DNA from: Clostridia bacterium
GTDB taxonomy: Bacteria; Bacillota; Clostridia; RUG12999
Reading direction: 5' to 3'
Assembly: GCA_022801925.1 (NCBI GenBank)
Contig: JAAWTG010000008.1
Span: forward strand, 2,619 to 66,618
Length of the DNA stretch: 64,000 nt
Shown piece after piece: positions 14,015 through 53,807 of this stretch. The stretch's first letter is position 1. Every line of letters begins with the position of its first letter. Below the pieces are notes generated by a model that made no database searches, had not been told where the DNA came from, and worked only from the letters and a program-made list of their open reading frames with translations. The position numbers and the translations under genes are program-made.

Positions 14015-14151
14015 AATATTGTTCTAAATGTACGATTGAAACTCACATATTATTGTAAGTCATTCGAGCGTTTCATGATTTACAACAGTATGTGAGTTTT
14101 TAATTTACAGAAAAGGGCGTAATATTTTATAATCTATAGGAGGTACCAACA

Positions 14152-16162: not shown

Positions 16163-16201
16163 ATGAAACGATGCATTGCTGTGGCTCTATGCAAAGTCTG
16201 A
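16163..16201 (+). CDS. Candidate 12-aa leader peptide (MKRCIAVALCKV) of an attenuator upstream of the MFS gene
   Basis: Strong RBS AAAGGAGGGG 8 nt upstream. The peptide overlaps one arm of mutually exclusive hairpins (see findings). Confidence 0.3.
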   Translation: MKRCIAVALCKV

Positions 16202-16295
16202 CAGGGCGTTTTGCATAGAGCGGATAAAACAATCATTCGCCCGAAAAGACTTTGCTTTTCTTTTGATAAAAATATAAAAAAGGAGCAAAGTCCAT

Positions 16296-28438: not shown

Positions 28439-28522
28439 CTGTCATACCTCCCTTGGTTTGATAATATACGCATCGCCGGTTTCGAGCGAAGCGAAGAAAC
28501 GATTCGGCGGTGCTTTCTCATT

Positions 28523-28640
28523 CATGCAATCTTCGGACACGTGCCGAAGATTGCATACCTTTCGCTGTTCGGAGTGTCAAGGAACGCGACGCGACGCGCG
28601 AGTGCAGAACAGCGAAAGGGGGAATCCCCAAGGGGGGATG
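28523..28640. repeat. GC-rich structured intergenic element, copy 1 (13-bp-stem hairpin with ACACGTG loop, plus nested stems)
   Basis: ATGCAATCTTCGG-ACACGTG-CCGAAGATTGCAT at 28523-28555; CCTTTCGCTGTT (28557-28568) pairs with AACAGCGAAAGG (28607-28618); GGGGGAATCCCC follows. Confidence 0.5.
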
Positions 28641-28742
28641 AATCGACGGCATAAGCCGGAGAGAATCCCTTCTTGGAAATATATTATACCATGATTTTAA
28701 TAGAAATACCAGCCATTTTTTATCAAAGGGTTGCAAAAATAC

Positions 28743-30794: not shown

Positions 30795-30822
30795 ATCGTT
30801 TCGGACGAGGCAATGAACTGTT

Positions 30823-31038
30823 ACGAGGGGGACTTCAAAGACTGTAAAGCAGTCTCATGTCCCCCTCGCACCCTCCGGGCACACGATAAGCTCCCCAAGT
30901 TCGGGACGCAAGGAAAGCATAAATCCCGCATTTTATGCAGGATTTCCGTCCCGCAAGGTGCAAAAAGTCAGGCGCACGCGTGCCCCAGAGGGGATGTCCT
31001 GACTTTTTGCATATTTTATAGAAGGGGTAACCCCCTTC
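30823..31038. repeat. GC-rich structured intergenic element, copy 3
   Basis: ACGAGGGGGAC...GTCCCCCTCG with an inner hairpin AGACTG/CAGTCT. 13-bp-stem hairpin GCAAAAAGTCAGG/CCTGACTTTTTGC whose loop holds the palindrome GCACGCGTGC. Confidence 0.5.
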
Positions 31039-31082
31039 CTAACCCCAGTTTTAGCGTATTGACTAGTTTTGTCTACAGTCTG

Positions 31083-31113
31083 AGCGTATCTCATCAGAGA
31101 TACGCTGTTTTTA
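31083..31113 (+). terminator. Rho-independent terminator
   Basis: Perfect 10-bp stem, 4-nt loop, then GTTTTTA. Confidence 0.8.
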
Positions 31114-31131
31114 TCATAACAATGGAATAAA

Positions 31132-33030: not shown

Positions 33031-35307
33031 TTACGTTTGCGATTTTCGATAGTTGCCCGGCGTTGTTCCGACTGTTTTTTTAAACAGGCGGATAAACGAG
33101 GTTGTATTGAGAAATCCTGTTTCCAGCGAAATATCGTCAATTTTTTTAGACGTACAGCGCAATAGTTCCTTTGCTTTTTCAATTCGCTTGTTGTTGATGT
33201 AGTTAACAAAACCCTCTGGCTGAATGGTTTTAAAAATTTTAGAGATATAAGGTGAACTGATGTGAAACTCCTGTGCTACCATGTTGGCACTGAGATCCGC
33301 ATCGGTATAATGCTCGTCAATATATGTCTTGATTTTCTTTGCCAGTGCCGCGGCACCGCTGTCGTTTGCCGCTTCAGTTTCCCGTTTGATTTTTGCACAA
33401 ATGCTTTCAATCAAATCATGAATACCGCTTTGAATAGCGCGGATATCAGCAGAACCGGTCAGTGTCAGTAAGTATATATCGTTGACCTTTTGATTATCGC
33501 TGCTAACGTAGTTTTGGAAATTTTTCGTAATCGTATTGATAAGGTCATGGATATAGTATTTAAACACAACAGGATTAAAGTTGATAGAGTGCGTGGATTG
33601 ATGAATGAGGTCGTCAACAAAGGCACATGCCTTTTCCTGTTCTCCGTATTTAATATAGTTGCATAATTGGCTGATTTTATCAATTCTGAAAAACAGCGGG
33701 TCTGTATGTTCAGCGGCAATATCCTCGTAAAATACAATATCGGATTCTCCTGTGAATTGGATATAGTCAATACAGGTAAACGCTTCGGCATATGCCTTAG
33801 ACAGCTCGAAAATATCGCCGTGCCATTCGCTGACGCCAGCAGAAAAATCTACGCTGAAATGCTGTTTCATCAAAGCGATAATTTCGCCCAGCACGCCGTC
33901 CAGCAGTGCGAAATCCTGCTGGGAACGCACGGCAATGAGCGCAATACAATTTCCGTAGCTTTCAAAGAAATAACTCTCCATGCCTTTGTCGTCCAACAGT
34001 TCCCGACCGATGTTGTCAATGATGTCCACCAGCAAATTGTAGCGCTCGAAATCAGAAATGTTTTCATCCTGAAATAAATCGGCGTAATGTTGCATGGGGA
34101 ACAGAATCACCACATTCGGCGGAGAGGACAGTTCGGGAGCAAGATATTTCTTGACCGTATCGCCTTGGATGTCGGAAATTGTGCCATTGAGTAATTTCGC
34201 CCAGAACGTATCTTTTAGCTGCCGGTTATGTTTTTCCTGAATGGTTTTTGTTTGCCGCAGCTGCTGCGCTGCATCTAAGATAAGTCCTTCAATTTGCGAC
34301 ATTTCGTTCTGGTCGCGATATTGTGTGGGAACCTTCATTAAAACTTTCCGAATCGGTGAATATTGGCGGTTGACCAGAAACCGTATAGCAACCATACCCA
34401 ATATCACAGCGATAAGCATAAGCAGCGACACGACATAAAAACTGTTAGAGGATGCATAATAGTAGGTTTTTGGCGTGTAGAACACAAAATGCCAGCCGGT
34501 ATCGGAGGAAGAGATATAGTTTGCTATAGTTGCCTGCTCGTTCAGGTTAAATTCAAACATTCCCTGTGGCTGTGTGAACTGTTCCGTCACACCCTGCGAT
34601 AAAGTGTCGGAAGAAAGTGTTGTGGCAAGCAGCATGTCAGAACGGTCAAATATTTCGTAGTTGATTTTGCTGTCTGCAATCATTTTGCCGAGTTGATAGC
34701 TAAAATAGGCGTCGCGAATCATGATAATCATGAATACATTATCAGAGGACAGCCGGTATTTAAACGTGACATATTTCGGCGAAACGTCCGTCAAAGAACT
34801 AGTACCCTTGACAATTTTAAATTCTTCATAGGGCGAGGATACCCATTCCTGCCAAGTGGGATAGTCAATATCCAGTCCAGTGTAGACGGAATTGAAAAAT
34901 TTTGCGTCCTCCTGCAGCCCTTCTGCACTGCCAACCGTACCGGAGTTACCATAATAAAAATAGAACTTATACGCATTATATAAGGTAAAATAATAGGGCT
35001 TGAGCGCTTCCTGAAACGAATGAATCATCTCGGGGGAAGCCTGCTGCGTTGCTTGAAGTGTACGGATAGCCAAAACATCTTGGTTAGTGGCAAGTTCAGA
35101 CGCAATGGTCTTATAACGACCGAGTTCCAAATCAATTTGCTGCTGCACATTTTGATAGAATACATTGTTTTTTTGATTCAGTTCCTGACGGATATTTTTC
35201 ATTAAATATTGATATGTAATATAATTGAACACAACCGGAATGATGAGTACAAAGAAAAAGGAACGCGACCATTTGGAAACCAGAGATGATTTTTGAAAAA
35301 AGTTCAA
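33031..35307 (-). CDS. Membrane-anchored sensor regulator with a C-terminal AraC-family HTH domain
   Basis: N-terminal TM segment, a large extracytoplasmic domain, a second TM, then AraC HTH x2 (...ISSPYISKIFK...TGFLNTTSFIRLFKKTVGTTPGNYRK). TTG start preceded by AGGAGG. Confidence 0.7.
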   Translation of the reverse strand: MNFFQKSSLVSKWSRSFFFVLIIPVVFNYITYQYLMKNIRQELNQKNNVFYQNVQQQIDLELGRYKTIASELATNQDVLAIRTLQATQQASPEMIHSFQEALKPYYFTLYNAYKFYFYYGNSGTVGSAEGLQEDAKFFNSVYTGLDIDYPTWQEWVSSPYEEFKIVKGTSSLTDVSPKYVTFKYRLSSDNVFMIIMIRDAYFSYQLGKMIADSKINYEIFDRSDMLLATTLSSDTLSQGVTEQFTQPQGMFEFNLNEQATIANYISSSDTGWHFVFYTPKTYYYASSNSFYVVSLLMLIAVILGMVAIRFLVNRQYSPIRKVLMKVPTQYRDQNEMSQIEGLILDAAQQLRQTKTIQEKHNRQLKDTFWAKLLNGTISDIQGDTVKKYLAPELSSPPNVVILFPMQHYADLFQDENISDFERYNLLVDIIDNIGRELLDDKGMESYFFESYGNCIALIAVRSQQDFALLDGVLGEIIALMKQHFSVDFSAGVSEWHGDIFELSKAYAEAFTCIDYIQFTGESDIVFYEDIAAEHTDPLFFRIDKISQLCNYIKYGEQEKACAFVDDLIHQSTHSINFNPVVFKYYIHDLINTITKNFQNYVSSDNQKVNDIYLLTLTGSADIRAIQSGIHDLIESICAKIKRETEAANDSGAAALAKKIKTYIDEHYTDADLSANMVAQEFHISSPYISKIFKTIQPEGFVNYINNKRIEKAKELLRCTSKKIDDISLETGFLNTTSFIRLFKKTVGTTPGNYRKSQT

Positions 35308-35403
35308 CTAGGATTCCTCCTTTGGTGACAAATTAATCATCATAGCCGCTTATGGGCTATGATGTGCTTTACTAAGCGAACGGAATCAGACTACTTTCTA
35401 GTC

Positions 35404-35557
35404 ATGGAATATCCGGACACGTGCCGGATATTCCATACCTCTCAGCCGTGAGCGTTTCGATAGGAACGCTGCGAGAGCGGACGCGGCTGCATGGGGGTGT
35501 CCACGAGGGGGACGGCTTGACAGAATATTTTACATTCTGGAAGGAGTCCCCCTCGTG
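35404..35557. repeat. GC-rich structured intergenic element, copy 2
   Basis: ATGGAATATCCGG-ACACGTG-CCGGATATTCCAT (35404-35436). CACGAGGGGGAC (35502-35513) pairs with GTCCCCCTCGTG (35546-35557), with the inner hairpin CAGAAT/ATTCTG. Confidence 0.5.
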
Positions 35558-35877
35558 ATGTAAATAGTATATCATAAAAAAAACTTTTTTTCAATTCCAC
35601 AGAATAAATTGCCTGATTGTACATTGCGGAAAAATAGGTAAAAAGTGCCGATTTATCGAGGTTTTGCGGAATCGGAGAATAAAATTAGTAAATCATTTGA
35701 TTAAAAAAAGTAAATTTTAAAAGGACTAAAATAATGAATGAAACGAGGGCGTATTCAAAATTTGTCAGCCGCAAATAAAATTCGTAAATTGAAATTCAAC
35801 ATGGCACCTTGTATAATAAAAACAGAACACGGACAGAGGGAAAATGTCCGGAAAAATCAGGAATGGAGGAGATTGGC

Positions 35878-39522: not shown

Positions 39523-42500
39523 ATGAAACGACATGCAAAGCGTTTTTGTGGAATACTTTTGCTCACGGCAATGCTGCTGGCAATGATTCCGGCAGGATTT
39601 GCCGCCGCAGCGGGGGTTGCCATGCCAACGGCTGATGTTGCGCCGGGACTCTATAGGGAGACCAAACAGGTTTCGCTGTCGGCAGCGGCAGGTGCAACGA
39701 TTTATTATTCCACAGATAATAAAATGCCGGACGAGACCTGCACAGAATATACAGGTTCCATCACAGTGAGTGAAACCACAAATATTTGTGCCATTGCGGT
39801 GGCAGACGGCGTGAAAAGCGACCCTGTCACGTTTACATACATCATCAAAGATGCAGAAGAACCGATTTTTCAATTTGTAGCAATGAGCGATATTCATATC
39901 GGCGACAGGACAAAAGACGCACCGCGGGTAAAGAAAGCGTTTGATGTGATTCAGTCCATTTTCCCGGAGCCGGATGCGATTGTTCATGTGGGCGACCAAA
40001 TCAACGACAACCACGTTGCCCATCCGGAACAGCCGGATCGCAGTGCAGACCATCAAATTGTGGTTGATATGCTGCAAAAAGAATTGCAAGACCGCAGCTT
40101 GACAGACAAAACCGACGTCAGCATGGTAATGGGAAACCATGACTCGACGGTAAGTAATATGCAGAAATACTATCCGGAAGAGTGGTATCCAACCTCCGGA
40201 CCGGGCTACTATCATAAAGTGATTGACGGCTATGATTTTCTGTTTTTGAACACAGAAAGCGCAAATCAGACGCAAGCAAATTGGTTAAGTGAAAAATTGC
40301 TGGAAATCACGAAAAATAAAACAGAGATGAACAAACCCATTTTTGTGGCGGGACACAGACCACTTGCAGGAACGGTGTTGGACAGCCAATATGCAGTGAA
40401 TGCTCCGGCAATCACGAATGTGTTAGCGGAATATCCGCAGGTAGTGGCGTTTTCGGGACATTCGCATATCAACATGAACGACGAAAAATCCATTCATCAA
40501 AAAAACTATACTTCTTTGAATACAGGTTCCATGAGTTATATTGAAATTGACCGTGGTAACAATTTTCAGATGCACACTAATGCAGGACAAGTGGCATCCT
40601 TTGAAATTCCTGTCACGCAGTGCTACTTTGTGGAAGTCTTTAGTGACCGTGTGGAATTTGACCGCGTGGCAGTGAACGCGGACTGGGGCGATGCCAGACC
40701 GCATTTTATCCCATCTGAACCCTTCAACAATACTGGTGTATCCATTGGAGAACGCTGGACGGTAGATATGACAGGCGACATTAAAAGCAAATTCCAATAT
40801 ACAGCAGAAAAACGAAAAGGCAGCGCGCCGACCTTTGCAGCGGATGCAAAAGTAACAGCAAAAATAGAAGGCGGCAAAGCGCTTGTAACTTTCTCTCAGG
40901 CGGAGGACGTGCAGAAGCTTCGCTATTATGAAGTAGCTATGCGCGATGCAGCAGGAAACGACGTCAAATCCATGAAGGTACTGCCGGAGCACTATTTCTC
41001 ACCGGTACCGCGTACATTAACCTATGAATTTACGGATATTCCGCAGTTTGGCGGCAGTTATACCTTTGGCGTCCGCGGCGTGGATACCTTTGGCAACCGC
41101 TCGGAAGCGATTGTCACGGAAGAAGCGGTGACTGTGCCGAAGTTGCCAGGGATTTTACCGACTTATCTGGTAAACGAGACATTCACCGAGGAACCGACAG
41201 ACGCGGCGACACAAGTAATGCCATTTGTAGACGCATGGAGCGGCGGACAGGCAACAATAAACTACAATAATGGAATGTGCAATCTGGTCAATGGTGGAAA
41301 TACAAACTTTGGTTTGGGAATGCCGCTTATGCCGGGAGATGGAACAACCGCTACGCCGACCGGACCTTTGATGGTAGAATGGGAATGGAAAGACGCTACA
41401 GGTGCAGGGGAAGAAATCCAAGCCTATTTCCGTAATGCGGCGGGTCAAAACTCATTTGTTGTCCGTGCTTATTCCGGTAGCTATAACTGCCGATTCATTA
41501 ATGCAAGCAATGGTTCCGGCAGTAACTGGGGTAGTTCTTCAGCGGCAGGATCCAATGCTATGACCAAGGTGCGGGTGCTGCTGAATAACACAGGAAGTGC
41601 AGCTTATGTAGATGGCGTGTGGCTGAATGGGACACGTATTGTCAGTGAACGTCAGACATTTCTCAGAGATGTTGGCGCTGGATTTTCAAAAATTATTTTC
41701 AGTCACAAGACAAATGGCTCAACGGGCGATACGGTATTTAATATAGATAATCTCAAGGTATGGGTGCCGGCGGCTTCCCAAGCGGCAAAATTAGCGGCGG
41801 AGGACGGTGCGGCGATTACTTTTGACGATATCAAAGGAACCAACGAAGCGGCGAATAATATCACGTCAGACTTGGCGTTGGCGGCGAAAACAGAAACAAC
41901 AAACGGTTTGATTGTCACAGGCTGGAAATCCAGCAATCCAGCAGTCATTGCGGCAGACGGTACTGTAACGCGTCCAGGACTTGGAGAACCGGACACAGAA
42001 GTGACTCTGACACCGATTCTGGGCGTACTGGATTTTGAAAACGAAACAGACGGCAACTATGCTACGGCAGAAGGAACGCCCATCACAGTGACGGTCAAAA
42101 CCACCGACACCACCGGCGGCATTCGTCCGGAGGATGTGAATGGCGTTGGATATTATGTCAACGAAACCTATGACGAGAAACCGACTGACCCACAGACGCA
42201 TTCCATTCCAAGCATTGGCACATGGAGCGGCGGCACGGCAGAATGGACTGTGGAAGATGGAAAACTGGCGATGGTACCGACGTCAACCGGTTATAATTTC
42301 AATATACAAATCCCCTTCATGCCGGGAGAAATGAAAGAAAATATCGTGCCGAAGGGCAAGGTATATATTGATTTTAAATGGCAACATGGTGCAAATGAAA
42401 CACAGACCGACCTTTATGTGCAGGGGTATGCAAGCAATCTTGTGAAGTTGATAGCAAAAAGCGGAAAACTAGAGGTAGCGTATTATGACGCAAGTAATAA

Positions 42501-45500
42501 ACTGCAAACCTATGCAACTTCTGCGAGCGGACTCAATTTTAATCAAATGAATCAGATTAAACTTTTGATGGATGTAAAAGCCGATGGAGCATCCACCTTG
42601 GAAGGCTTTTGGTTAAATGGAACGGAAGTCAAAACGGGATCCGTAACTCTTTATAAGAAAACGGGAACGGAAGATAAAGATATAGAAAGAGGACCGGCCG
42701 GCTTGGTTTCCTCTCGATGGGCAACAACAGGTACAAAACCCTACAAAATGTTAGAGTTTGATTATATGAAAACATGGCAGCCGGTAGAAGAACAGCTTGC
42801 GGCGAAAGCGGCGAAAGCGACGGTTACATTTGACAGCATTAAAGGCGCCAATACAGCGGCAGACAATGTTATGGGGAATCTGAAACTAGGGGGGGCGTCA
42901 TATGAAATTATAAATGGACTTTCTCTGGTCGGATGGAAATCCGGCAACGAAGCTGTTATTAAAGCAGATGGCACTGTAGTACGTCCTGCCTATGGCAGCG
43001 GCGATGTACAGGTGGCGCTGACGCCGGTATTTGCAATGCGCAACAGCGAAAACGAAGATGGCGTTCCCGAACTTGTCAAAGCAGACGGTACGCCGATTAC
43101 CGTAACAGTGAAAGAAGCAGGAAAACCAACGGACTTTAATGTGACATATTTAGTAAATGAAGATTTTGATACTCTGCCAACAGAAGCAGACGCAGCAACC
43201 CGTCCCATTCCGTCTGAATCGGCATGGAGCGGCGCGTCCGCTACGGTTGATGTGGCGGACAGTGCGGCTCGGTTGAAACTGGACGGCGGCATTGCAAAGA
43301 ACACACAAATGAATGTTCCTGTCATGCCGGGAGCAGCAGCAAGTACCATGCCGCGCGGAAAGAATATGATTGAATTTGAATGGAAACATCATGCAAATGC
43401 AACGCAAATCATGGTCTATTTGCAAGGGGCAAACGGACATGTGCTGAGACTGGAAAAGAGCGGGACGAGTACAATTATTAAAAAAGGAACCAACGGCAGT
43501 GCTTTTTCCGATGTAAAAACGTTAAGTAATCAGGTCTTTACAACTGATACAAAAGTCCGTCTGCAAATAGACACTTCGACAGAAGGTAAGACCTATTTGG
43601 AACAATTGTGGATTGGTGGAACACCAAAATTAGACAGTCGCGTGGAATTGTTTGATGCGGGTGATGGATTGAAGCAATTGATGTTTGCGCCCGGAAATAC
43701 GACTACCGGCGTAGGCGATATCGTGTGTAGCGTCAACTACATTAAAGCATGGCAGAGCGCACCGGCGCAGCTTGCAGAATATGTAGCACAAAATCCTGTG
43801 AACGTTACATTTGATAACATTAAAGGCGAGAACACAGCAGCGAACAATGTGACGAGCAATCTGCAAAAAGCAGATTTAGGTAACGGCTTGAAAGTGGTTG
43901 GCTGGAAAACCAGCAACGCGGCAGTCGTTGCGGCGGATGGCACTGTGACACGCCCTGCAAAGGGAAGCGGAGATGTTCAGGTGACTTTAACGCCGATGAT
44001 TGGAACAGAGGATATCACAGGCGAAGGAACAGACGGTTATATTTCTGTAGACGGTACGCCGATTACGGTTACGGTGAAAGAAGCTACGGGAGAAACAACA
44101 CCGACACCGACGGAAACAGCGACACCAACGCCCACGCCAACATCGGATACGCCCACGCCCACGCCGGTACCAGGCGAATCAAAATTGGCATATTTTGTGA
44201 ATGAACCTTTTGATACCCTGCCGACGGCGGCAGATGCGGCAACCAGACCCGTTCCGGTTGTAAGTGATTGGGGCGGAAAAGATTCCATAGTTCGGGTAAC
44301 CGATGGCGCGGTGCAGTTGGTTCGCGGCAGCAAAGCGGCGAACACCTGTCAATTGGACGTGCCGCTTATGACAGGTACCGGCACGGCAAGTATGCCGCGC
44401 GGCGAAAACATGATTGAATTTGAGTGGAACCGCAACAGTAAATCAACGCAAATGGCGGTTTATATCAAGGGCAGCGCAGGACACGCGATGAAACTGAATT
44501 GCACGAATAATTCCATGGCAATTCAAAGCTCCCAAACCGGTAAACCAAATGCCGGTGAATTTACCACCTTGGCAACGGTAGACAATCTCAATTTGGGCAG
44601 CGGCTGGACAAAAGTCCGGTTGAAAATTAATTCAACAGGAACAAGTACCTATCTGGAACAAGTTTGGGTGAACGGCGAAGCGAAACTGTCGTCAAAAGCA
44701 GTGCTGTTTGACGTTGGGCAAGGATTGCAGCAGATGATGTTCTCGCCAGGTAACGGTTCTGTAGGTGCAGGAGAAGTGATTGTCAGCCTGAACTATTTAA
44801 AAACATGGCAAAGCGCAGCGTCTCAAATTGCGGAACTGTCCCAAGGCGCTGTCACCTTTAACGATATCAAAGGTACAAATACGGCGGCAGACGCTGTAAC
44901 AGCAAATCTGGATTTCAGTAAAACGGAAATCGGCGATTTCAGAGTACAGGGCTGGAAATCCTCCAACGAAGACATTATTGCGGCAGACGGCAGCGTGACG
45001 CGTCCGCTGATTACGCAGAACGACGCGCAGGTGGTGCTGACGCCGATACTGGGCATGGCGGACACGACAAACGAAGGCGACGGCACTTGGGTCTATGGCG
45101 ACGGCGCACCCTTGACAGTCACCGTGAAGAAAATGGGCGCGGCGGACGCGGTTGCACGGGTGAAAGCAGAGCTATCCTTTGACGACATCAAAGGTATCAA
45201 CACGGCGGCGGACAGTGTGACGGATAATCTGGACTTTATTCGGGAACTGAACGGCGTAAACATTCAGTGGAGTGTGCAGTCCATGACGCCTTCCACAACA
45301 ACGGCAAAAGTGGACGGCGCAACCGGCATGGTGGTTCGTCCGCAGATGAATGAAAGCGATGTGACCGTTGTATTGCGTGCGGCGCTTACCTGTGAGGGTG
45401 CGTCCGACACCAAAGACATCACGGTAACACTCAAGAAACTGGACGTATCCGCAGAGGAATATCTGCGGCAGTTGGCGGACAGTCTGACCTTTGCGGAAAT

Positions 45501-47127
45501 TGCAGGGGATAACAAAGCAGAGAATCGAATCACAGCGAACCTGCACCTCATTCCTTCTTTCAAGGGAGCGCAGGTGACATGGCAGTCCAGTCAGCCGCAG
45601 ACGGTTGCGGCTGACGGCAGTGTGACACGTCCGGACTATCCGCAGCCATCTGCTGAAGTGCAGCTTACAGCAACGCTGCAAATGGAAGGCGCACAGCCGG
45701 TCACAAAAGTGTTCCGTGTTGTGGTTCTGTCTACCGATTCGGACAACTTAGCATTAGAGAAAACTGTGAAAGTCAACGTAGCAGCGGACGGAGACACCAA
45801 AGCGGCGAACCTGACAGACGGCGACAGAGATACAACCTTCCGCACCAAAGCAGGTGCGAAAGCCTATACGGTGACAATTAATTTGGGCAGTGAAACACCG
45901 TTTAGCAGCTTGGACGTCTATGAAGTCGCAAACGGCGACGGTGTCTATGCGATTGAAGCCTATACAGTTGACATTTCAAATGACGGTAAAACATGGAAAA
46001 CCGTTGCGACAGGCGGCACCATTGGACTGGGCAGCACCATTGCTTTTGATCCGGTAATCGCACAGTATGTACGGTTAAATGTGACCAAAAAGAAATCGGG
46101 CGTGGCGTCGGAGCTGGCAGAAATTGCAGTACGTTTGCAGCCAACAGAGGCGCAGCGTGTGAAAGCGGATATTGAAAATCTGATGCTAGACCTGCCGGAT
46201 ACCATTACGGCAAACAGTATTACTTTGCCGGCAAAAGGTGCGTTTGGTTCGGATATTACATGGACATTTACGCCGGAGGGAATTATCGCTCAGACCGGAA
46301 CGCCGGACGGCAATGGCAATATGACGTATGCAGTGACCCATCCGCAAAACGGACAACGGGTAACGCTCGTTGCAACAGCAAAAAGCGGCGCTGCGGCAGC
46401 GAAAAAGAACTTTAATCGTTCTGTTAGCGGTACCGCTACGAATAACGGAGGCGGCGCAGGTAACAGTGGCGGGGGCAGCGGAAGTGCTTCTGGTGGCAGT
46501 GGCAGCGGCGGCGGAAAAATGCCAAATGTGAATCTTGGAGACCTCAGCGGTGTGGGAACGCCGAGTGGCGCGAACAAACCGTCACAAGAGGGATTCCGCG
46601 ATATGGAACAGGATGCATGGGCAATTCCATATGTCATGAAGCTGTATACGCGCGGCGTGGTACAAGGCGATGAAAACGGAAACTTCCGGCCGGCACAGAG
46701 TGTTAACCGTGAAGAATTTGTAAAAATGCTGGTGCTGGCGCTGGACGTTCCGGAAAGCGAAGCAGACATCGCATTTGCCGATATGGAACAAGGCGCTTGG
46801 TACAGAGATTATATTCAGGCAGCAGTGGCAGCAGGTATTGTCAAAGGCGTATCGGAGGAGCGGTTTGGCGTAGGCGAAACCATCACGCGTGAAGATATGG
46901 CAACGATGATTTACCGTGCGGTGACTTACCTGAAACAAAATATTGGAAATAGTGAACATGCAGCTACCATCACGGATGCGCAGGACATCAGCAGCTATGC
47001 GCAGGAAGCAGTAAGCGCACTGGTGCGCGGTGGCGTTATCAGCGGCAACGAGGCAGGGGAATTCCTGCCGAAAAATCAGTCAACCAGAGCGGAAGCTGCA
47101 AAAATGCTGGCAATGTTGATGCAATAA
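39523..47127 (+). CDS. Giant (2534 aa) SLH-anchored cell-surface protein. Contains a calcineurin-like metallophosphoesterase domain, four tandem roughly 330-aa lectin-like + Ig-like modules, a discoidin-like domain and three C-terminal SLH repeats.
   Basis: Signal peptide. A CHB_HEX_C-like domain (GATIYYSTDNKMPDETCTEYTGSITV). Metallophosphatase motifs (AMSDIHIGD, HVGDQIND, GNHDS, GHSHIN). Repeats start at about 41141, 42142, 43141 and 44187. PT linker. SLH x3 begin at DMEQDAWAIPYV. Confidence 0.8.
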   Translation: MKRHAKRFCGILLLTAMLLAMIPAGFAAAAGVAMPTADVAPGLYRETKQVSLSAAAGATIYYSTDNKMPDETCTEYTGSITVSETTNICAIAVADGVKSDPVTFTYIIKDAEEPIFQFVAMSDIHIGDRTKDAPRVKKAFDVIQSIFPEPDAIVHVGDQINDNHVAHPEQPDRSADHQIVVDMLQKELQDRSLTDKTDVSMVMGNHDSTVSNMQKYYPEEWYPTSGPGYYHKVIDGYDFLFLNTESANQTQANWLSEKLLEITKNKTEMNKPIFVAGHRPLAGTVLDSQYAVNAPAITNVLAEYPQVVAFSGHSHINMNDEKSIHQKNYTSLNTGSMSYIEIDRGNNFQMHTNAGQVASFEIPVTQCYFVEVFSDRVEFDRVAVNADWGDARPHFIPSEPFNNTGVSIGERWTVDMTGDIKSKFQYTAEKRKGSAPTFAADAKVTAKIEGGKALVTFSQAEDVQKLRYYEVAMRDAAGNDVKSMKVLPEHYFSPVPRTLTYEFTDIPQFGGSYTFGVRGVDTFGNRSEAIVTEEAVTVPKLPGILPTYLVNETFTEEPTDAATQVMPFVDAWSGGQATINYNNGMCNLVNGGNTNFGLGMPLMPGDGTTATPTGPLMVEWEWKDATGAGEEIQAYFRNAAGQNSFVVRAYSGSYNCRFINASNGSGSNWGSSSAAGSNAMTKVRVLLNNTGSAAYVDGVWLNGTRIVSERQTFLRDVGAGFSKIIFSHKTNGSTGDTVFNIDNLKVWVPAASQAAKLAAEDGAAITFDDIKGTNEAANNITSDLALAAKTETTNGLIVTGWKSSNPAVIAADGTVTRPGLGEPDTEVTLTPILGVLDFENETDGNYATAEGTPITVTVKTTDTTGGIRPEDVNGVGYYVNETYDEKPTDPQTHSIPSIGTWSGGTAEWTVEDGKLAMVPTSTGYNFNIQIPFMPGEMKENIVPKGKVYIDFKWQHGANETQTDLYVQGYASNLVKLIAKSGKLEVAYYDASNKLQTYATSASGLNFNQMNQIKLLMDVKADGASTLEGFWLNGTEVKTGSVTLYKKTGTEDKDIERGPAGLVSSRWATTGTKPYKMLEFDYMKTWQPVEEQLAAKAAKATVTFDSIKGANTAADNVMGNLKLGGASYEIINGLSLVGWKSGNEAVIKADGTVVRPAYGSGDVQVALTPVFAMRNSENEDGVPELVKADGTPITVTVKEAGKPTDFNVTYLVNEDFDTLPTEADAATRPIPSESAWSGASATVDVADSAARLKLDGGIAKNTQMNVPVMPGAAASTMPRGKNMIEFEWKHHANATQIMVYLQGANGHVLRLEKSGTSTIIKKGTNGSAFSDVKTLSNQVFTTDTKVRLQIDTSTEGKTYLEQLWIGGTPKLDSRVELFDAGDGLKQLMFAPGNTTTGVGDIVCSVNYIKAWQSAPAQLAEYVAQNPVNVTFDNIKGENTAANNVTSNLQKADLGNGLKVVGWKTSNAAVVAADGTVTRPAKGSGDVQVTLTPMIGTEDITGEGTDGYISVDGTPITVTVKEATGETTPTPTETATPTPTPTSDTPTPTPVPGESKLAYFVNEPFDTLPTAADAATRPVPVVSDWGGKDSIVRVTDGAVQLVRGSKAANTCQLDVPLMTGTGTASMPRGENMIEFEWNRNSKSTQMAVYIKGSAGHAMKLNCTNNSMAIQSSQTGKPNAGEFTTLATVDNLNLGSGWTKVRLKINSTGTSTYLEQVWVNGEAKLSSKAVLFDVGQGLQQMMFSPGNGSVGAGEVIVSLNYLKTWQSAASQIAELSQGAVTFNDIKGTNTAADAVTANLDFSKTEIGDFRVQGWKSSNEDIIAADGSVTRPLITQNDAQVVLTPILGMADTTNEGDGTWVYGDGAPLTVTVKKMGAADAVARVKAELSFDDIKGINTAADSVTDNLDFIRELNGVNIQWSVQSMTPSTTTAKVDGATGMVVRPQMNESDVTVVLRAALTCEGASDTKDITVTLKKLDVSAEEYLRQLADSLTFAEIAGDNKAENRITANLHLIPSFKGAQVTWQSSQPQTVAADGSVTRPDYPQPSAEVQLTATLQMEGAQPVTKVFRVVVLSTDSDNLALEKTVKVNVAADGDTKAANLTDGDRDTTFRTKAGAKAYTVTINLGSETPFSSLDVYEVANGDGVYAIEAYTVDISNDGKTWKTVATGGTIGLGSTIAFDPVIAQYVRLNVTKKKSGVASELAEIAVRLQPTEAQRVKADIENLMLDLPDTITANSITLPAKGAFGSDITWTFTPEGIIAQTGTPDGNGNMTYAVTHPQNGQRVTLVATAKSGAAAAKKNFNRSVSGTATNNGGGAGNSGGGSGSASGGSGSGGGKMPNVNLGDLSGVGTPSGANKPSQEGFRDMEQDAWAIPYVMKLYTRGVVQGDENGNFRPAQSVNREEFVKMLVLALDVPESEADIAFADMEQGAWYRDYIQAAVAAGIVKGVSEERFGVGETITREDMATMIYRAVTYLKQNIGNSEHAATITDAQDISSYAQEAVSALVRGGVISGNEAGEFLPKNQSTRAEAAKMLAMLMQ

Positions 47128-47206
47128 AAATGGAGTGGGGGTTTGCGGGAGTTTTCACTCCTGCAAACCCAAAAACGGAATACGCAATTGGGGAGGCTGC
47201 GAAGAA

Positions 47207-49915
47207 ATGAATATGAAAAAAATACTCAGTATGGTGCTCGCATTTGTCCTGTTATTAGCGTGCAGCATACCGGCGCTGGCAGAAACCGAACTGCCGGACA
47301 AAGTGTTGTTTGATTTAGAATCCCTTGGGATTGTACAAGGAAACGAAAATGGAGATATGGAACTGGACGGTCCCCTCACACGGGCGGAGTTCGCATCCAT
47401 GATAGTACGCCTGAAACAGATGCAGGACTGGCCGGCACAGTTGCCGGAGGGCATCACTGATGTTGAAAAAGATGATTGGTTCTATGGGGAAGTATGCCGC
47501 ATTTTGACTGCCGGTATGATGGTGGGATATGGAGACGGTAGATTTGGACCGAATGACCAAATGGACATGGAAATGGCAATGAAAGTGTTGGTGGTAAGTC
47601 TTGGGTATGATGTGGCAGCACAAAAGCGCGGCGGATATCCGGACGGCTACCGCAATATTGCGGCGGAACTGGGACTGCTGCGGGGCAGCAATATCACACC
47701 GGGCACTTTTACGCGGGCAGATATCCTGCGTATGATTTACAACAGTCTGGACGTTTCCATTGCCCAGCCTGGTTATAGTTATGATGAAATTATTCAAATT
47801 ACGGAGGATACATTCCGGCAGCGGATTTTGGAAAAAGACCGTGAGAGCCAGTTGTTCAAAGGAAAAGGCGTTGTCACAGCCAATTCCAAACTGTGGATTG
47901 GCAGTAAACCAAGCGGTAAGCTGGCAGCAGACGAAGTCTATATTGACAATGTCCGCTATAAAACAGAGATTGCAAATGCAGGAAACTACCTCGGTATGGA
48001 AGTGGATTACTATGCGCAGGAGGGCAGCGACGGTCTGCTGCATTTGACGAGCGTGAAACCAACGAAGCGCAATGAGACGCTGACGCTGACAGAACAAGAC
48101 TGGACGCAGCCGCAGAATGGGAAAATGACCTATTATAAAGACGGCAAACAAATCACACTAAGCATTTCCCCACAAGCGCTTCTGATTCAAAATATGCGGC
48201 TGCAAAGCAGCTATACGGAAGCGGATATGACGCTGGAGCGCGGCGCGGTGACACTGATTGACAATGACGGCGACAGCGCTTATGATATTGTCGATATTGA
48301 AACGTTCCACAGCTACCGTGTTGACCGTGTGAACGGCGATATCATCTATCTGAAAACGGCGGGCAAAGCGCCGCAGCGCAATTTCATTAACTTTGACGAT
48401 AACGACGACGTTGTTTATACGATTTTAAACGCAGAAAATGAAGTTTGTAAACCGGAGGACATCAAAGCGGATGACATTGTCAGCGTGGTGGAAAGCGAAG
48501 ACGGGCAGGTTTGCACCGTTGTAATCGGACAGGAAAAAATAACGGGAGAAATCACCGAACTGGAAGAGGACAGCGTACTGGTAGGAGATACCAAATATGA
48601 TTTGGAACCGGGATTTGAAGAAACTGGTAAAACGCTTAAAGTCGGAGACAATTTTGCATTTTATCTGAACTACCGCGGCGAAATTTGCACGGTGAATGAA
48701 GAAATGGGACTGGAAGGCGCGGAAAAATATGCCTATGTGGCAGAAGTGGGGCGCAGAAGCGGCATGAGTCCCAATCTGGAAGCAAAACTGCTGCTGCCCG
48801 GCGATTTTGTGGAAACGCAGGAAGAGTCTGATATTGAGGACGATACCAGCGTTATCCTGAAATTAAAAGGACAAAACGCCAATGTTGTTATTTTGGAATT
48901 TGCAGATAAAGTGTCTGTAGATGGCAAAACAATGGGCGCGGCAGAACTGGAACAGCACTTTTCCAAAACGGACGACAAAGGGCGGCTGGTGAACAATGTC
49001 ATTCGCTACCGTGCGAATGCAAACGGCGAAATTAAAACCGTCACCACACCCACAATCGTAGGAACTTCAGGGAAACGCGTGTATAATGCAAAAGAAAAAG
49101 TGTTTGGTAAAAAAGCGATTTCTGCCTTCGGTGCGGAAGAAACCACAAAAGTGTTGATGATTCCCGACTATGAAAAGCAAAGCATAGAAAGCATCAAGGA
49201 CGAGGACTATCTCGCACCGGTGGAAATCAATGATGAACAGGAATATTATATCAACGGCTATGATATCAAAGAGGAAAATGAATGTGTCCGCGTGCTGGCA
49301 ATCACGGCAACGCTGAAAGCGGACAGCCCGGGCGCTATCATTGACAGCAGTAAAATGGCTGTGGTGGAATCCGTCTCCATGTGCGTGGACGAAGAAGGCG
49401 AATCACGTTACAAAATCTATTTCTGGTCGGGCGGCGTGAAAATGAGTTACATGGTGGACGACATGGCGCATACACAGGCGAAAGCGCTTGGCAGCGGCGA
49501 TATTTTCTACTATGCTGTTTCGCCGGCAACGAACCAGATTAATAAAATTATCCGCATTGACAATGCCGTAAAACCGTCCGGCGGAATGGGCGAATTCGGT
49601 ATCGGAACGGAATCCAATCCGGAGGGACTCGGTAAAACGGTTTGCGGGTATGTGTCCGGCGTGGAATATCAGAAGATTGAAGATATTTTAAATCGCCGTG
49701 TGGATCGTATCACCGTTGATTTCGGAAACGGCAGCGAAGCGGTTGTGAAAGCAAACAGCCGTAATGCCCCGCCGGTATATTTATATGACGCGCAGCTCAA
49801 GACGATAAAGGTGATTTCGTCTCAGGATATCATTCCGGCACAGACAAACAGCGCAGACCAAATCATGGTACATATTAAAAACAGCACGGTGCGCGGCATC
49901 GTTATTGTCCGCTGA
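47207..49915 (+). CDS. SLH-domain protein (three N-terminal SLH repeats) with a roughly 700-aa C-terminal region of unknown function
   Basis: Signal peptide MKKILSMVLAFVLLLACSIPALA, then SLH repeats (LESLGIVQGNENG..., ...GYGDGRFGPN...). RBS GGGGAGG. Confidence 0.6.
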   Translation: MNMKKILSMVLAFVLLLACSIPALAETELPDKVLFDLESLGIVQGNENGDMELDGPLTRAEFASMIVRLKQMQDWPAQLPEGITDVEKDDWFYGEVCRILTAGMMVGYGDGRFGPNDQMDMEMAMKVLVVSLGYDVAAQKRGGYPDGYRNIAAELGLLRGSNITPGTFTRADILRMIYNSLDVSIAQPGYSYDEIIQITEDTFRQRILEKDRESQLFKGKGVVTANSKLWIGSKPSGKLAADEVYIDNVRYKTEIANAGNYLGMEVDYYAQEGSDGLLHLTSVKPTKRNETLTLTEQDWTQPQNGKMTYYKDGKQITLSISPQALLIQNMRLQSSYTEADMTLERGAVTLIDNDGDSAYDIVDIETFHSYRVDRVNGDIIYLKTAGKAPQRNFINFDDNDDVVYTILNAENEVCKPEDIKADDIVSVVESEDGQVCTVVIGQEKITGEITELEEDSVLVGDTKYDLEPGFEETGKTLKVGDNFAFYLNYRGEICTVNEEMGLEGAEKYAYVAEVGRRSGMSPNLEAKLLLPGDFVETQEESDIEDDTSVILKLKGQNANVVILEFADKVSVDGKTMGAAELEQHFSKTDDKGRLVNNVIRYRANANGEIKTVTTPTIVGTSGKRVYNAKEKVFGKKAISAFGAEETTKVLMIPDYEKQSIESIKDEDYLAPVEINDEQEYYINGYDIKEENECVRVLAITATLKADSPGAIIDSSKMAVVESVSMCVDEEGESRYKIYFWSGGVKMSYMVDDMAHTQAKALGSGDIFYYAVSPATNQINKIIRIDNAVKPSGGMGEFGIGTESNPEGLGKTVCGYVSGVEYQKIEDILNRRVDRITVDFGNGSEAVVKANSRNAPPVYLYDAQLKTIKVISSQDIIPAQTNSADQIMVHIKNSTVRGIVIVR

Positions 49916-49946
49916 GTCGGAACAGGGAAACGGAGGTATGAAAAAC

Positions 49947-52900
49947 ATGAAAGGAAAACGAATTCTGACCGGACTGCTGCTGGCGTCTTTGCTGGCGGCG
50001 GGTTTCCCAGCGGCAGCGGAAGAAATGCCGGAAGCGGTGCAGCCGGAACTTATTCAGCAGGAAAAAACAGAGATGGTTAGCGTATCCGAAGGAGAAGACG
50101 GCGGCGCAGAAGAAACAGAAGACCCAGTGCTGGCGTTTGAAGATATCACAAGCAAAACGGGCATTTCAGACGAAACTTTCTATGGAAAATATGACGCGGC
50201 AACGGATACTTGGACGGTGAAACCCTATTTTAACTACGACAAATATCCCGAGATGGCGGCGGTAAAACAGGCGGCTATGCAAGTGACAGACGGCGACTAC
50301 AGCACCGTGAAAGAAGAAATTCTGCAATACTACCGTGACAAACGGAGCCGTCAAAACGTTCCCATGCAGGGGTCACCCAACACGCAGGCAGCATTTTTCG
50401 GTTATGCGATGAAAAAGAATTTCTATTTTCACCCCAGTTGGCCCATGCTCGGATATTTTAACGTAAACGGAACGCCGGACTACTATTCCGTAGATGTGAC
50501 CCACCAGTGGGACAGCATTAAAACAGCGCCCGACCACGTGGTATCTATGATATTGATGGCGTCGGAGAAGGACGGCAACACGGCTGAATTTGAAAGCAGA
50601 CAGGGAGCGCACCCGCCTATTCTGGAGGTGGAATCCAACGGCGTTGTCACCACGCTGACGGCGACAAAGGACGCAACTGTCATTGCGGGCAGCAGCGACA
50701 GCAAAAACTTTGGCAAAGAACCGACGCTGTTGGTGGAGGAAAGCGCAACGACAATTGGTGCAAGTGAACCGACGGACAGCAACACCAAACGGTCGCATAT
50801 CCAGTTTGACATCTCGGACATCAGTGTCACGGACGCGATTACCAGAGTGACATTGAAGGTCTATGGCAGAAACGCGACTTCGGACGAAGAAAAAGAAATT
50901 TTTGCAATGAAAACGCCCAACAATGCTTGGGAAGAAGACGTGATTACGTTTTACAGACTGGATAAAACGCAGGCATATGAACACATGGCGTATTCATGGG
51001 ACAAAGAGGACAGTGTTCGCTATATGCGCCCGAAATATCAGGGTTTCCGTCTCCGTGAGGAACTGGAACGGTTTGAAACATGGTTCCCCATGATGCTGGG
51101 CATGTATATACAAGGGACGGAAAACAATGAGGACTATGCCTATACGGCGATTCGTCATTGGGTGGGCTGGCTGAACCAGTCGGGTACCAATCCAAAGGGA
51201 CCGGGCTATGTGATTCCGCTGGATCATGGCTGCCGCAGTATTGCACTGCCGCGGGCGTTTGCATGGCTGATTATGTCGGAACATATGACGCCGGACGTGT
51301 GGAGCGCCACGCTGAAATATATGTGGAAAAGCGGCGACATCATGGTGACAAATAATTATGCCATCAACGACCCCAACAACGCGGGCGTTGTGGCGGCGCG
51401 CGGACTGCACATGATGAACTGCTACTATGACGAATTTGCAACCTATGACAAATGGCTGGCAAAGACGCGTACCAAAATTCAAACAGTGGCAAACGGCAGT
51501 CTGATTGACGCGGAAGGCGGCTATGGAGAAGGTTCTTTGGCATATGCTTCCATGACGGTTAACAACATGTTTGGATATACAACACCTAACACAGATACCA
51601 ATGTACAGGATTTGCCTTTCAATAACCGTGCTGATTATGACAAGGTAGAAGATTTGGCGGTTTATCTCATGGATATGAGTATGCCCGGCTATAAAGACAG
51701 TCAATGGGGCGATGGCGCTGAGTATACGACCGGATATACAGGACCGTTCCGGACGGTATTGCAGGAATATGACAATCCCCATTTGAAATATGCTGTCGGT
51801 GAAGAAGGCGGCATGGTTCCTGACTATACTTCAGTGCTTTACAAAAACTACCGCCGTATGGTAATGCGCAGCGGTTGGGGAGAAAATGACAATTATCTGT
51901 TTACAGATTTGGACGGCGCGACAGTGCAGCATACGCATAAAGATGATAATAGTATTATTGTGAAAGCCTATGGACAATATTTGCTCAGCGACCAGCTATT
52001 CTTTTCCTATGGAACAGGAACAGTCAAGAATTATCTGGAATCTACTCGCGCACACAATACCATAGAAATTGACAACGCCAGCCAAGGAACGAAAAAGCGC
52101 GGCAATGTGAAATATTGGGAAAGCAATGATATCTATGACCACACCACCAATGAATCGCTGGCATATCAGGGCGAGAAAAATGAGAAACATACCCGTGATA
52201 TCCTGTATGTTCGTCCGGGATTCTGGATTGTGGGCGATTATGTGAAACCTACCGATAGCGACACAGCACAGCATAACTATAAACAACATTGGCATATGCT
52301 GCCGGATGCGAACATTTCGTTGGACGAAGGAAGTCTGACCACAAGAACGAATTTCGGCGGTGCGGCAAACATTCAAATTGTGCAGGCGAATCCGGAGGAC
52401 ATGGACGCAAAGCTGAACAACGGTTATTATATCGGAACCACAGCAGATTACGTGACCTATGAACAGCAAGCGGTGGGACCGGTCATTTTCAACACGGTAT
52501 TATATCCGGAAAAAGCGGGCGCAAATGTGGAAGTGACGGCAGAAACGCTGCCGCTGGAAAACGTAGAAAACAACGGCGTAACGGCAATGCATATCAATAT
52601 TGATAACCATACGGACAATGAATTCGTGCGTGCTGATTACTATTTGGTGCACGATGAAAAACAAAAAGCGGTGCGCAGTTTTGCAAACTATGAAACCGAT
52701 GCGCGTAGCGCATATGTGGAACGGGACGCGCTGGGCAATCTGACCCGCTTGATTGTGCAGGGCGGAACCTATGTGAAAGATTTGGATAAAAACGTGTGTT
52801 TGTTCAAATCAAAGACCCCAGTAGAACAAATTGGGTTTGGATTGTCCTATGGAACCGTTACCCGCGACACCTCAGCAAACGTGGATATGGAAAAACTGAC

Positions 52901-53807
52901 GGTTTATGCAGACAACACAAGCGATATTGTGAATGTATATGAGGGTACCAAAGGCGCAAATGCCGTGAAAACGCCGGTTTCCTATAAAATGTCGGGACGG
53001 TATATCTATTTTGGCGCTGCGCCGGTTGAAGAAGAAACCGAGAGACCGGATGTAACGCCAAAACCGACGCCGACACAAAAACCGGATTCCAACGTAACCG
53101 GTGGAATTTCCGGCGGCGGAGGCGGTGGTGGAGGCGGTATTGGCAGTGTGAAACCGCAGGAGACGGTAACACTGCCTATAGTGACGCCAAAGCCAACAGA
53201 AACAGGTGATGTAACCCCGCCGCCTACGGTGACACCCAATCCGACAGAGCAGATGAAAAAGGAATTGCAGGGACATTGGGGCGAAGCAGAACTGCTTGAA
53301 ATGGTAGATAAAGGCATTTTGAAAGGCAGCGGCGGCACATTGTCGCTGGAAGCCCCTGTCACAAGATCGGAGTTTATCACCATGCTGGTGCGCGGTCTGG
53401 CGTTGGAAACAAAACCATATGCGGGCGGTTTTGCAGACGTGACGGAAAACGACTGGTTTGCAGAATATGTCCAGACGGCTGTAGAGCACGGAATTGCATC
53501 CGGTATGGGTGACGGAACATTTGCAGGCGACAAAATCATCAGCCGCGAGGAAATGGCAAAAATGCTGGTGAATGCATTTGAAGCGGCAGACGAAGGCAAA
53601 ACAGCCTTGGGTGAAACAATGAGCTTTGGCGACAGCGCAGCAATCAGCGGTTGGGCGCTGGAATATGTGGAAAAAGCCGCAGGCTACGGACTCCTACAAG
53701 GAGATGAAGAAAAACGGTTCCGGCCGCAAAGCGGCGCGCAGCGCGACCAAGCTGCTGTGGCAGTCGGACGTATGCTGGGAAAGTTGAAAACGCATAGTGA
53801 AAATTAA
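49947..53807 (+). CDS. SLH-anchored heparinase II/III-like polysaccharide lyase family protein
   Basis: Signal peptide. Alpha-toroid region, then HTHKDDNSIIVKAYGQYLLSD...ESTRAHNTIEIDNASQ (heparinase II/III-like C-terminal signature). G-rich and PT linkers. Three C-terminal SLH repeats. Confidence 0.6.
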   Translation: MKGKRILTGLLLASLLAAGFPAAAEEMPEAVQPELIQQEKTEMVSVSEGEDGGAEETEDPVLAFEDITSKTGISDETFYGKYDAATDTWTVKPYFNYDKYPEMAAVKQAAMQVTDGDYSTVKEEILQYYRDKRSRQNVPMQGSPNTQAAFFGYAMKKNFYFHPSWPMLGYFNVNGTPDYYSVDVTHQWDSIKTAPDHVVSMILMASEKDGNTAEFESRQGAHPPILEVESNGVVTTLTATKDATVIAGSSDSKNFGKEPTLLVEESATTIGASEPTDSNTKRSHIQFDISDISVTDAITRVTLKVYGRNATSDEEKEIFAMKTPNNAWEEDVITFYRLDKTQAYEHMAYSWDKEDSVRYMRPKYQGFRLREELERFETWFPMMLGMYIQGTENNEDYAYTAIRHWVGWLNQSGTNPKGPGYVIPLDHGCRSIALPRAFAWLIMSEHMTPDVWSATLKYMWKSGDIMVTNNYAINDPNNAGVVAARGLHMMNCYYDEFATYDKWLAKTRTKIQTVANGSLIDAEGGYGEGSLAYASMTVNNMFGYTTPNTDTNVQDLPFNNRADYDKVEDLAVYLMDMSMPGYKDSQWGDGAEYTTGYTGPFRTVLQEYDNPHLKYAVGEEGGMVPDYTSVLYKNYRRMVMRSGWGENDNYLFTDLDGATVQHTHKDDNSIIVKAYGQYLLSDQLFFSYGTGTVKNYLESTRAHNTIEIDNASQGTKKRGNVKYWESNDIYDHTTNESLAYQGEKNEKHTRDILYVRPGFWIVGDYVKPTDSDTAQHNYKQHWHMLPDANISLDEGSLTTRTNFGGAANIQIVQANPEDMDAKLNNGYYIGTTADYVTYEQQAVGPVIFNTVLYPEKAGANVEVTAETLPLENVENNGVTAMHINIDNHTDNEFVRADYYLVHDEKQKAVRSFANYETDARSAYVERDALGNLTRLIVQGGTYVKDLDKNVCLFKSKTPVEQIGFGLSYGTVTRDTSANVDMEKLTVYADNTSDIVNVYEGTKGANAVKTPVSYKMSGRYIYFGAAPVEEETERPDVTPKPTPTQKPDSNVTGGISGGGGGGGGGIGSVKPQETVTLPIVTPKPTETGDVTPPPTVTPNPTEQMKKELQGHWGEAELLEMVDKGILKGSGGTLSLEAPVTRSEFITMLVRGLALETKPYAGGFADVTENDWFAEYVQTAVEHGIASGMGDGTFAGDKIISREEMAKMLVNAFEAADEGKTALGETMSFGDSAAISGWALEYVEKAAGYGLLQGDEEKRFRPQSGAQRDQAAVAVGRMLGKLKTHSEN

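Follow-up and report, generated by a model that had tools for sequence, protein, structure and literature searches.

What kind of element is a hairpin whose G5/C5 outer stem recurs between genes of a Clostridia bacterium while its inner stem changes? The outer-stem word ACGAGGGGGAC…GTCCCCCTCG is present twice in the window, i.e. the whole stretch of 64,000 nucleotides analysed here, at 35503-35556 (copy 2, with ACGAGGGGGAC at 35503-35513 and its complement at 35546-35556) and at 30823-30869 (copy 3, with ACGAGGGGGAC at 30823-30833 and the complement, carrying one mismatch, at 30859-30869). The two inner stems differ in sequence and are equal in geometry, CAGAAT-attttac-ATTCTG in copy 2 and AGACTG-taaag-CAGTCT in copy 3. 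When up to one mismatch was allowed, ACGAGGGGGAC had five matches in the window against 0.36 expected, a number that none of 100 shuffles got to, and the pattern GGGGGA-N(12-42)-TCCCC had four matches against 0.22 expected. The preliminary description, made from the letters of the window, had claimed a common outer stem around different inner hairpins in copies 2 and 3, and both the word positions and the shuffle statistics bear this out. In copy 2, the G5/C5 hairpin begins 65 nt downstream of a hairpin with an ACACGTG loop, and the region folds at -88.9 kcal/mol (z = -8.7); the region of a third locus, copy 1, folds at -82.5 kcal/mol (z ~ -8).

The G5/C5 hairpin (P3) is the last of three hairpins, P1-P2-P3, in a core of ~185 nt (Table 1). 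Copies 1 and 2 are homologous over ~175 nt (alignment of 28500-28700 with 35380-35580) and each folds as three successive hairpins, namely P1 (13-bp stem, loop ACACGTG), a branched P2, and P3, in which an internal loop separates a G-rich/C-rich outer stem from the inner hairpin. P3 of copy 1 had been overlooked because its outer stem (CCAAGGGGGGAT/ATCCCTTCTTGG) differs and was missed by exact-word matching. Copy 3 is a diverged member of the family on the minus strand, an orientation that was hidden because the outer stem is palindromic. All three loci of the window carry the P1-P2-P3 core in the identical order, which contradicts the earlier proposal that they combine their modules differently. 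Around this core, the family draws on a leader, P0, P1 subfamilies, P2 of types A and B, an optional module X of ~100 nt (GGGGGCAAAGAGCGGAG - variable stem - AAGAAAAGTAAGAGGAGGAG - variable hairpin - GGGGGACATTTTCA - stem) and several P3 types. The v1-type upstream module that holds P0 is common to copy 2, L093 and L009, and P0 of copy 2 has a compensatory change in L189. The 3' part of P3 in copy 3 matches L105 2809-2846 on the opposite strand, while the expanded P1 loop type of the same copy recurs in L079 2786-2980. In the short relative of the mosaic near the end of the window, TGATATAAT belongs to an AT-rich palindrome; the other parts are a GCCACG…CGTGGC leader hairpin, CACTTTTCAAATTCA and, where other loci have P1, an AT hairpin. 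AT-rich palindromes of the form ATTATACCA-AAACGC GAA GCGTTT-TGGTATAAT were seen at 62523-62565 and in L067, L015 and L185; they are back-to-back -10 boxes with a GCGAAGC mini-hairpin word, and their central stems covary (AAACGC, AATTGC, ATCTGC).

Table 1. Features of the hairpin repeat family; positions refer to the window unless another locus is named.
Feature	Location	Strand	Description
Copy 1 upstream leader module	28473-28523	+	GCCGGTTTCGAGCGAAGCGAAGAAACGATTCGGCGG…CTTTCTCATTCA; recurs at other loci
Copy 1 P1	28524-28556	+	ATGCAATCTTCGG ACACGTG CCGAAGATTGCAT
Copy 1 P2, type A	28558-28619	+	CCTTTCGCTGTTC…GAACAGCGAAAGG
Copy 1 P3	28628-28676	+	Outer stem CCAAGGGGGGAT/ATCCCTTCTTGG with two G·U pairs; tandem G·A loop; inner CGGC-ATAA-GCCG
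Copy 1 perfect extended -10 box	28683-28691	-	TGGTATAAT; abuts P3, reads through the element towards tadA
Copy 3 with flanks	30803-31082	-	280-nt insertion relative to three related genomes
Copy 3 P3	30823-30869	-	GCGAGGGGGAC…GTCCCCCTCGT; inner AGACTG/CAGTCT; tandem G·A loop lost
Copy 3 P2-like hairpin	30903-30952	-	Sequence divergent
Copy 3 P1 variant	30959-31011	-	14-bp stem; expanded loop with CCCCTCTGGGG and palindrome GCACGCGTGC
Copy 2 upstream hairpin P0	35338-35364	+	ATCATAGCC…GGCTATGAT; part of v1-type upstream module
Copy 2 P1	35404-35436	+	13-bp stem, invariant self-complementary loop A-CACGTG
Copy 2 P2, type B	35437-35500	+	Branched; CAGCCG…CGGCTG and inner hairpin
Copy 2 P3	35502-35557	+	12-bp outer stem CACGAGGGGGAC/GTCCCCCTCGTG; tandem G·A internal loop UGAC…GGAA; inner CAGAAT/ATTCTG
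Copy 2 predicted sigma-70-type promoter	35566-35594	-	TTGAAA-17-TG-a-TATACT, consensus match
Short relative of the mosaic	62523-62660	+	Directly 5' of ORF 62680-63216
Module X	L093 2670-2770		
Module X	L110 1980-2240		
Module X	L105 2660-2840		

Beyond the window, a scan with the P1 pattern found at least 11 loci in the MAG CAMNSU01 ('uncultured Clostridia bacterium') and, among the matches listed, two in the MAG CATIYX01 (iMGMC-479). A metagenome scan gave only three loci, all of them near-identical to loci of these MAGs, and the exact P1 25-mer was present, among the genome matches listed, only in the CAMNSU and CATIYX MAGs and additionally in one metagenome. Synteny links the window to CAMNSU010000003.1 (92-95% identity). 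When 196 kb from related MAGs were searched with a covariance model of 10 copies, 19 strong copies came out; at least 15 copies score 75-197 bits with homology spanning ~185 nt, and further, diverged copies exist in two more relatives, located only via synteny. The outer-stem word of P3 proved non-diagnostic by itself: viral contigs gave no match to the P1 word, yet 64 unrelated ones have the 9-bp version of the outer stem, GAGGGGGAC…GTCCCCCTC, and none of these convincingly matches the family model (best score 15.7 bits vs 75-197 bits for the copies).

The copies sit only between genes, in both orientations relative to them, and their neighbours are functionally unrelated (tadA, MATE, AraC-type regulator, ABC permease, Ham1, GH123, mnmE, tsaD, queA, aroA, sulfatase, and others). 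One contig (L079 2300-4720, CATIYX010000188.1) has three copies in 2.2 kb, all in one orientation in a gene run leading to mnmE/tsaD, two of them in tandem before mnmE. A gene-specific cis-regulatory RNA such as a riboswitch or attenuator is ruled against by the unrelated neighbours and the mixed orientation. At gathering thresholds, no Rfam family, riboswitches, ribozymes and SRP included, matches anywhere in the window; with E relaxed to 10, the copy 1 and copy 2 regions gave only chance-level matches (up to 21 bits), and the IS605-orfB and HEARO models gave none. A tRNA/tmRNA scan found none, the family was not found in annotated phages and plasmids, and no paper describing it turned up when the literature was searched by topic and by sequence word. 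Multiple non-coding, intergenic copies with filled and empty orthologous sites are the mark of an interspersed repeat, and P3 is probably the 3'-terminal hairpin of the ~185-nt core of a lineage-specific, composite, non-coding interspersed repeat in a clade of uncultured gut Clostridia. The modular structured RNA or repeat family that the preliminary description had preferred to a chance palindrome is supported, as a multi-copy three-hairpin unit with strong covariation and with modules that are gained, lost and swapped.

The conserved feature of the repeat is its fold, not its sequence. Double compensatory changes were found at 21 of 51 predicted pairs in a 10-copy alignment and at 26 of 51 in a 15-copy alignment, counts that have to be read in the light of the fact that arms of near-perfect palindromes (e.g. 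P1) can co-vary via template switching without selection. Among the 15 copies, 97.2% of the cells pair vs 83% in shuffled alignments (0/500 reached the observed value), and pairing falls to 37-47% when the partners are slid. One position of P1 is found with each of the four Watson-Crick pairs. Variation in the stems leaves several parts constant, namely the loop of P1, the word CATACC 3' of that hairpin, the G5 runs and, in P3, the tandem G·A internal loop (UGAC…GGAA, kept in seven of eight P3 types); the P1 loop is self-complementary throughout (CACGTG, ACATGT in L189, and GCACGCGTGC in expanded loops). The sense strand, which is the plus strand of the window for copies 1 and 2 and also the strand on which the structure was derived, folds at -76.3 kcal/mol with 51 pairs vs -53.7 kcal/mol with 41 pairs for its complement; there are ~70 G·U cells vs 21 non-standard cells, and several positions toggle between U-A, U·G and C-G. 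Two small ORFs across copy 2 (57 and 60 aa, minus strand) were set aside as coding sequences because the stems change through paired substitutions. A K-turn reading of the P3 internal loop was dropped, as it has the tandem G·A and lacks the 3-nt bulge.

Such features are also what a dedicated structured RNA family (cis leader, cis-antisense or sRNA) might display, the main rival of the repeat reading and one that we regard as possible, if unlikely. P1-P2-P3 would then be a functional sense-strand fold employed at many promoters and recognised by a protein or RNA, e.g. via the CACGUG loop or the tandem G·A of P3, and its dispersal would reflect function and not selfish spread. The covariation, the strand asymmetry, a P1 loop that is ACACGTG or a self-complementary variant while the stems change, the tandem G·A, the GNRA-type loops (GUAA, GCAA) and the G·U intermediates all suit a dedicated RNA and count against the repeat, and so does the history of copy 2, which lies at the same site in four genomes. 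Between the window and L084, L190 and L189, respectively, P3 of copy 2 is 100, 98.3 and 93.1% identical, vs 87, 71 and 59% for third codon positions of the neighbouring AraC gene, 85, 83 and 75% for those of the permease gene, and 92, 81 and 73% for the rest of the spacer. Because P3 identity amounts to 93-100% vs 59-87% at third codon positions, we infer from these alignments that P3 of copy 2 is under purifying selection and that old copies such as this one are kept by selection.

The relation to transcription cuts both ways. The promoter-like site of copy 2 reads into P3 and on towards the gene of the AraC-family regulator (33031-35307), with a predicted transcription start 1-3 nt before the P3 foot; it is kept in L189 and L190, with a perfect TGGTATAAT there. 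The -10 box of copy 1 is resident flank and not part of the core, because relatives without the core also have that box. An extended -10 box on the opposite strand adjoins P3 in 11 of ~16 copies (window and CAMNSU), and the gene beyond P1 is co-directional with the predicted promoter in 10 of these 11, more order than random insertion predicts and hence a point against the repeat reading. With the predicted start at the P3 foot and a co-directional gene past P1, tadA and the AraC-type regulator probably have the complement of the element as their 5' leader, in which the P3 hairpin comes first. REP elements stabilise mRNA, and 5'-terminal stem-loops stabilise Firmicute mRNAs (e.g. the aprE and ermC leaders). 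Like the latter, the P3 complement of copies 1 and 2 would be a stable hairpin at the very 5' end from the predicted start, yet the analogy is one of position and of predicted starts, and the better-folding strand is the other one.

That the predicted promoters of copies 1 and 2 would transcribe the complement and not the better-folding strand is left without explanation by the repeat model, and it likewise speaks against a dedicated sense-strand RNA. Because the better-folding strand is not that of the adjacent promoters, recognition as single-stranded DNA or a transcript of the sense strand is conceivable. In favour of a dedicated RNA, two sense-strand copies in L079 lie just before mnmE and tsaD, their ends 0-20 nt from the start codons, and upstream of some copies (L015b; window 62553-62561) there is an extended -10 box that points in the sense direction. 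On the other hand, no consistent sense-strand promoter was found upstream of P1, and none of the copies scanned has a terminator-like site or the U-tract of an intrinsic terminator after P3. Copy 3 lies between convergent genes and adjoins a genuine bidirectional terminator at 31083-31106. An attenuator was considered for copy 2, in the form of a minus-strand terminator-like hairpin (tail after P0) before the AraC ribosome-binding site, and was dropped because its U-rich tail is not conserved in L189. A dedicated RNA also has to contend with downstream genes that have no common function, with the mixed orientation relative to genes, with the narrow spread of the exact P1 25-mer described above, and with the gain, loss and swapping of copies among close strains.

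The latter can be followed at several orthologous sites. The Ham1-GH123 spacer measures 62-88 nt in three relatives (L184, L185, L186), where it holds just the bidirectional terminator, while the window has copy 3 as a 280-nt insertion and the CAMNSU MAG has five ordinary genes at this point. As a whole, the Ham1-GH123 junction (30795-31131; L022 4183-8000 with L084 1-1577; L184-L186) is an insertion/deletion hotspot of 337 nt in the window, copy 3 included, vs ~5.4 kb in the CAMNSU MAG, with genes for MarR, MFS, Fpg, radical-SAM and DUF1848 proteins. In the tadA-MATE spacer, the core of copy 1 is missing from L184 and L185 and the flanks stay, including TATTATACCATGATTTG; in the orthologue of copy 1 in the 92%-identical CAMNSU MAG, the flanks are near-identical and the upstream module, the P1 stem, the P2 type and the P3 type differ. 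Two strains that are 99% identical differ by a ~100-nt module X between P2 and P3, present in one and absent in the other (L093 vs L110); the exchange points of this module sit in G5 runs, and inverted tandem copies of it occur upstream of P1. The orthologous copy 2 in L190 has a P1 from another subfamily, the stem being replaced and the hairpin retained. Exchange points generally are short conserved junction words (CTTTTCATTCA, G5 runs, TATTATACCA). All Logan contigs with the exact tadA protein of the window end at the repeat, 65 nt upstream of tadA, and none provided an empty site; these ends fit assembly-graph breaks at a repeat.

A comparison of copy 3 with the three empty sites gave no clean direct repeat at the insertion ends that could be a target-site duplication, only an internal second AGCGTAT, and the difference between copy 1 and L185 looks like replacement and not simple insertion. 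The two ends of the core, CTTTTCATTCATG… and …GGAAATATATTATACC, do not form an inverted repeat. At some extended units (L015b, L021, L185) the 9-nt pair TGGTATAAT…ATTATACCA marks the boundaries; this word equals the generic extended -10 box and has 28 near-matches in the window. The scanned neighbour proteins of the copies are all ordinary and include no transposase, and an all-against-all comparison of ~160 kb shows the copies without any companion repeat of more than ~450 nt. The IS remnant with intact transposases that had been named as a possible source of the G5/C5 module is thus missing beside every copy within these ~160 kb, to which this result applies. From presence and absence at orthologous sites we infer that the repeat may transpose.

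The sole recombinase of the window is a tyrosine integrase (8940-10220), preceded by an HTH protein (8205-8849) and followed by GNAT acetyltransferases, DUF1848 (12254-13201), HlyIII and an MFS transporter; this region, 8205-17612, may be an integrated island. It contains at 14039-14099 a 25-nt inverted repeat (88% complementary, 11-nt spacer) that is unrelated to the hairpin family. Another region, 39523-53807, begins with a 2534-aa ORF (39523-47127) with ~1-kb internal repeats, followed by ORFs of 926 and 1300 aa, and looks like a large surface or glycan-utilisation locus because these ORFs sit downstream of two ABC permeases and a 542-aa ORF.

According to the interspersed-repeat reading, insertion, together with recombination or gene conversion between copies, would spread the element, and a helper factor encoded elsewhere would recognise the folded single strand. 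A copy landing between promoter and gene would become a long structured leader of the transcript; the mRNAs of tadA (copy 1) and of the AraC regulator (copy 2) would begin with the P3 complement as a hairpin, which could alter their stability or translation, so that some copies might be exapted and old ones, such as copy 2, kept by selection. Against this stand the core without definable terminal inverted repeats or target-site duplications and a mobilising enzyme that was not found among the scanned ORFs; moreover, recombination alone could yield all the swaps.

The repeat would be an uncatalogued family of a known kind of composite intergenic repeats. In Streptococcus pneumoniae, BOX elements have the composite structure boxA-boxB(n)-boxC, are intergenic and co-transcribed, and are thought to affect expression of adjacent genes, while BIME/REP elements of enterobacteria and NIME of Neisseria are mosaics of short hairpin units that occur in both orientations, recombine, and lie within neighbouring mRNAs (PMC3049150). 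The Clostridia repeat shares with BOX a host among the Firmicutes, a non-coding, intergenic and multi-copy nature, a variable number of modules, extensive base pairing and a narrow lineage. Unlike BOX, however, whose terminal inverted repeats resemble those of ISSpn2, its core has no such pairing that we could find and combines three hairpins that differ from one another, a self-complementary loop that is invariant and a tandem G·A loop that is conserved. With BIME and NIME it has in common a mosaic of hairpin units joined by conserved junction motifs, both orientations and frequent recombination, but its unit is ~185 nt long as opposed to palindromic units of 35-40 nt in BIME/REP, and no dRS3-type 20-bp flanks as in NIME were seen. 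Nor does it resemble REP/REPIN sequences, as it has no GTAG head and three dissimilar hairpins in place of doublets, and neither a RAYT nor another associated recombinase came to light, the annotated ORFs of the window and loci containing no Y1_Tnp domain. With host clades that differ, the likeness to BOX, BIME and NIME is one of architecture only (PMC3049150). MITEs (e.g. Correia/NEMIS, ERIC and RUP) fold into stable stem-loops once transcribed, have filled and empty sites, in some cases promoter-like sequences, and exert orientation-dependent effects on mRNAs (PMC2229807). Their size (100-200 bp), the filled and empty sites between strains and the promoter-like sequence at some copies are similar here, but the terminal inverted repeats and target-site duplications that define MITEs were not found for the core.

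A more far-reaching reading, which we consider rather doubtful, is that P1-P2-P3 represents a new class of dispersed structured RNA or folded single-stranded DNA module with a dedicated partner. In the RNA version, a sense-strand RNA of each copy would overlap the 5' leader of the divergent neighbour, with a kissing CACGUG loop and a protein-bound G·A loop in P3; in the DNA version, the folded strand would be the substrate or guide of a mobile-element enzyme.

Less probable still is a non-autonomous derivative of a single-strand transposon (IS200/IS605-type, REP with RAYT, or a loop nickase), the folded single strand of which would be recognised by a transposase encoded elsewhere. It would account for a strand-specific fold that tolerates G·T, for insertion at empty sites with neither terminal inverted repeats nor target duplications, for variable stems around an invariant loop, for the conserved TTCA/TTCATG word directly 5' of P1, and for the d(GCGAAGC) mini-hairpin motif in associated modules. 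However, palindrome-associated elements of the IS200/IS605 type insert 3' of a fixed tetra- or pentanucleotide and have similar hairpins at both ends, whereas P1 and P3 are dissimilar, even though TTCA(TG) precedes P1; the GTAG-type REP head is absent; the annotated ORFs of the window and loci include no Y1/HUH transposase, TnpB or IscB, and the Rfam models mentioned above give no match. IS200/IS605 elements show a replication-strand bias; here, 11 copies have positive and six have negative local GC skew on the element strand, a measure that gene orientation confounds and that likewise fails to favour this reading. Finally, a chance G5/C5 stem common to otherwise unrelated GC-rich palindromes or intrinsic terminators is hardly credible, for although the 9-bp outer stem occurs by itself in the viral contigs and copy 3 lies by a genuine terminator, the word statistics exclude chance, no U-tract follows P3, the viral contigs score far below the at least 15 copies with ~185 nt of homology, and the alignment of copies 1 and 2, the model matches and the 15-copy covariation refute it.

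What is known of composite hairpin repeats (e.g. BOX, BIME and NIME) comes from a few well-studied pathogens; for uncultured Clostridia, which dominate gut metagenomes, almost nothing has been described. The interspersed repeat found here breaks short-read assemblies, remodels promoter-proximal regions between strains that are 92-99% identical, and would put long structured leaders before housekeeping and regulatory genes. Its covariation is unusually clean and, together with strand asymmetry and selection on P3, makes it a tractable case for asking whether such a repeat is recognised as RNA or as single-stranded DNA, and by what. If the RNA module were true, it would be a portable plug-in cassette for post-transcriptional control that travels with its promoter. 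The family is of relevance for MAG quality, strain typing and regulatory evolution.
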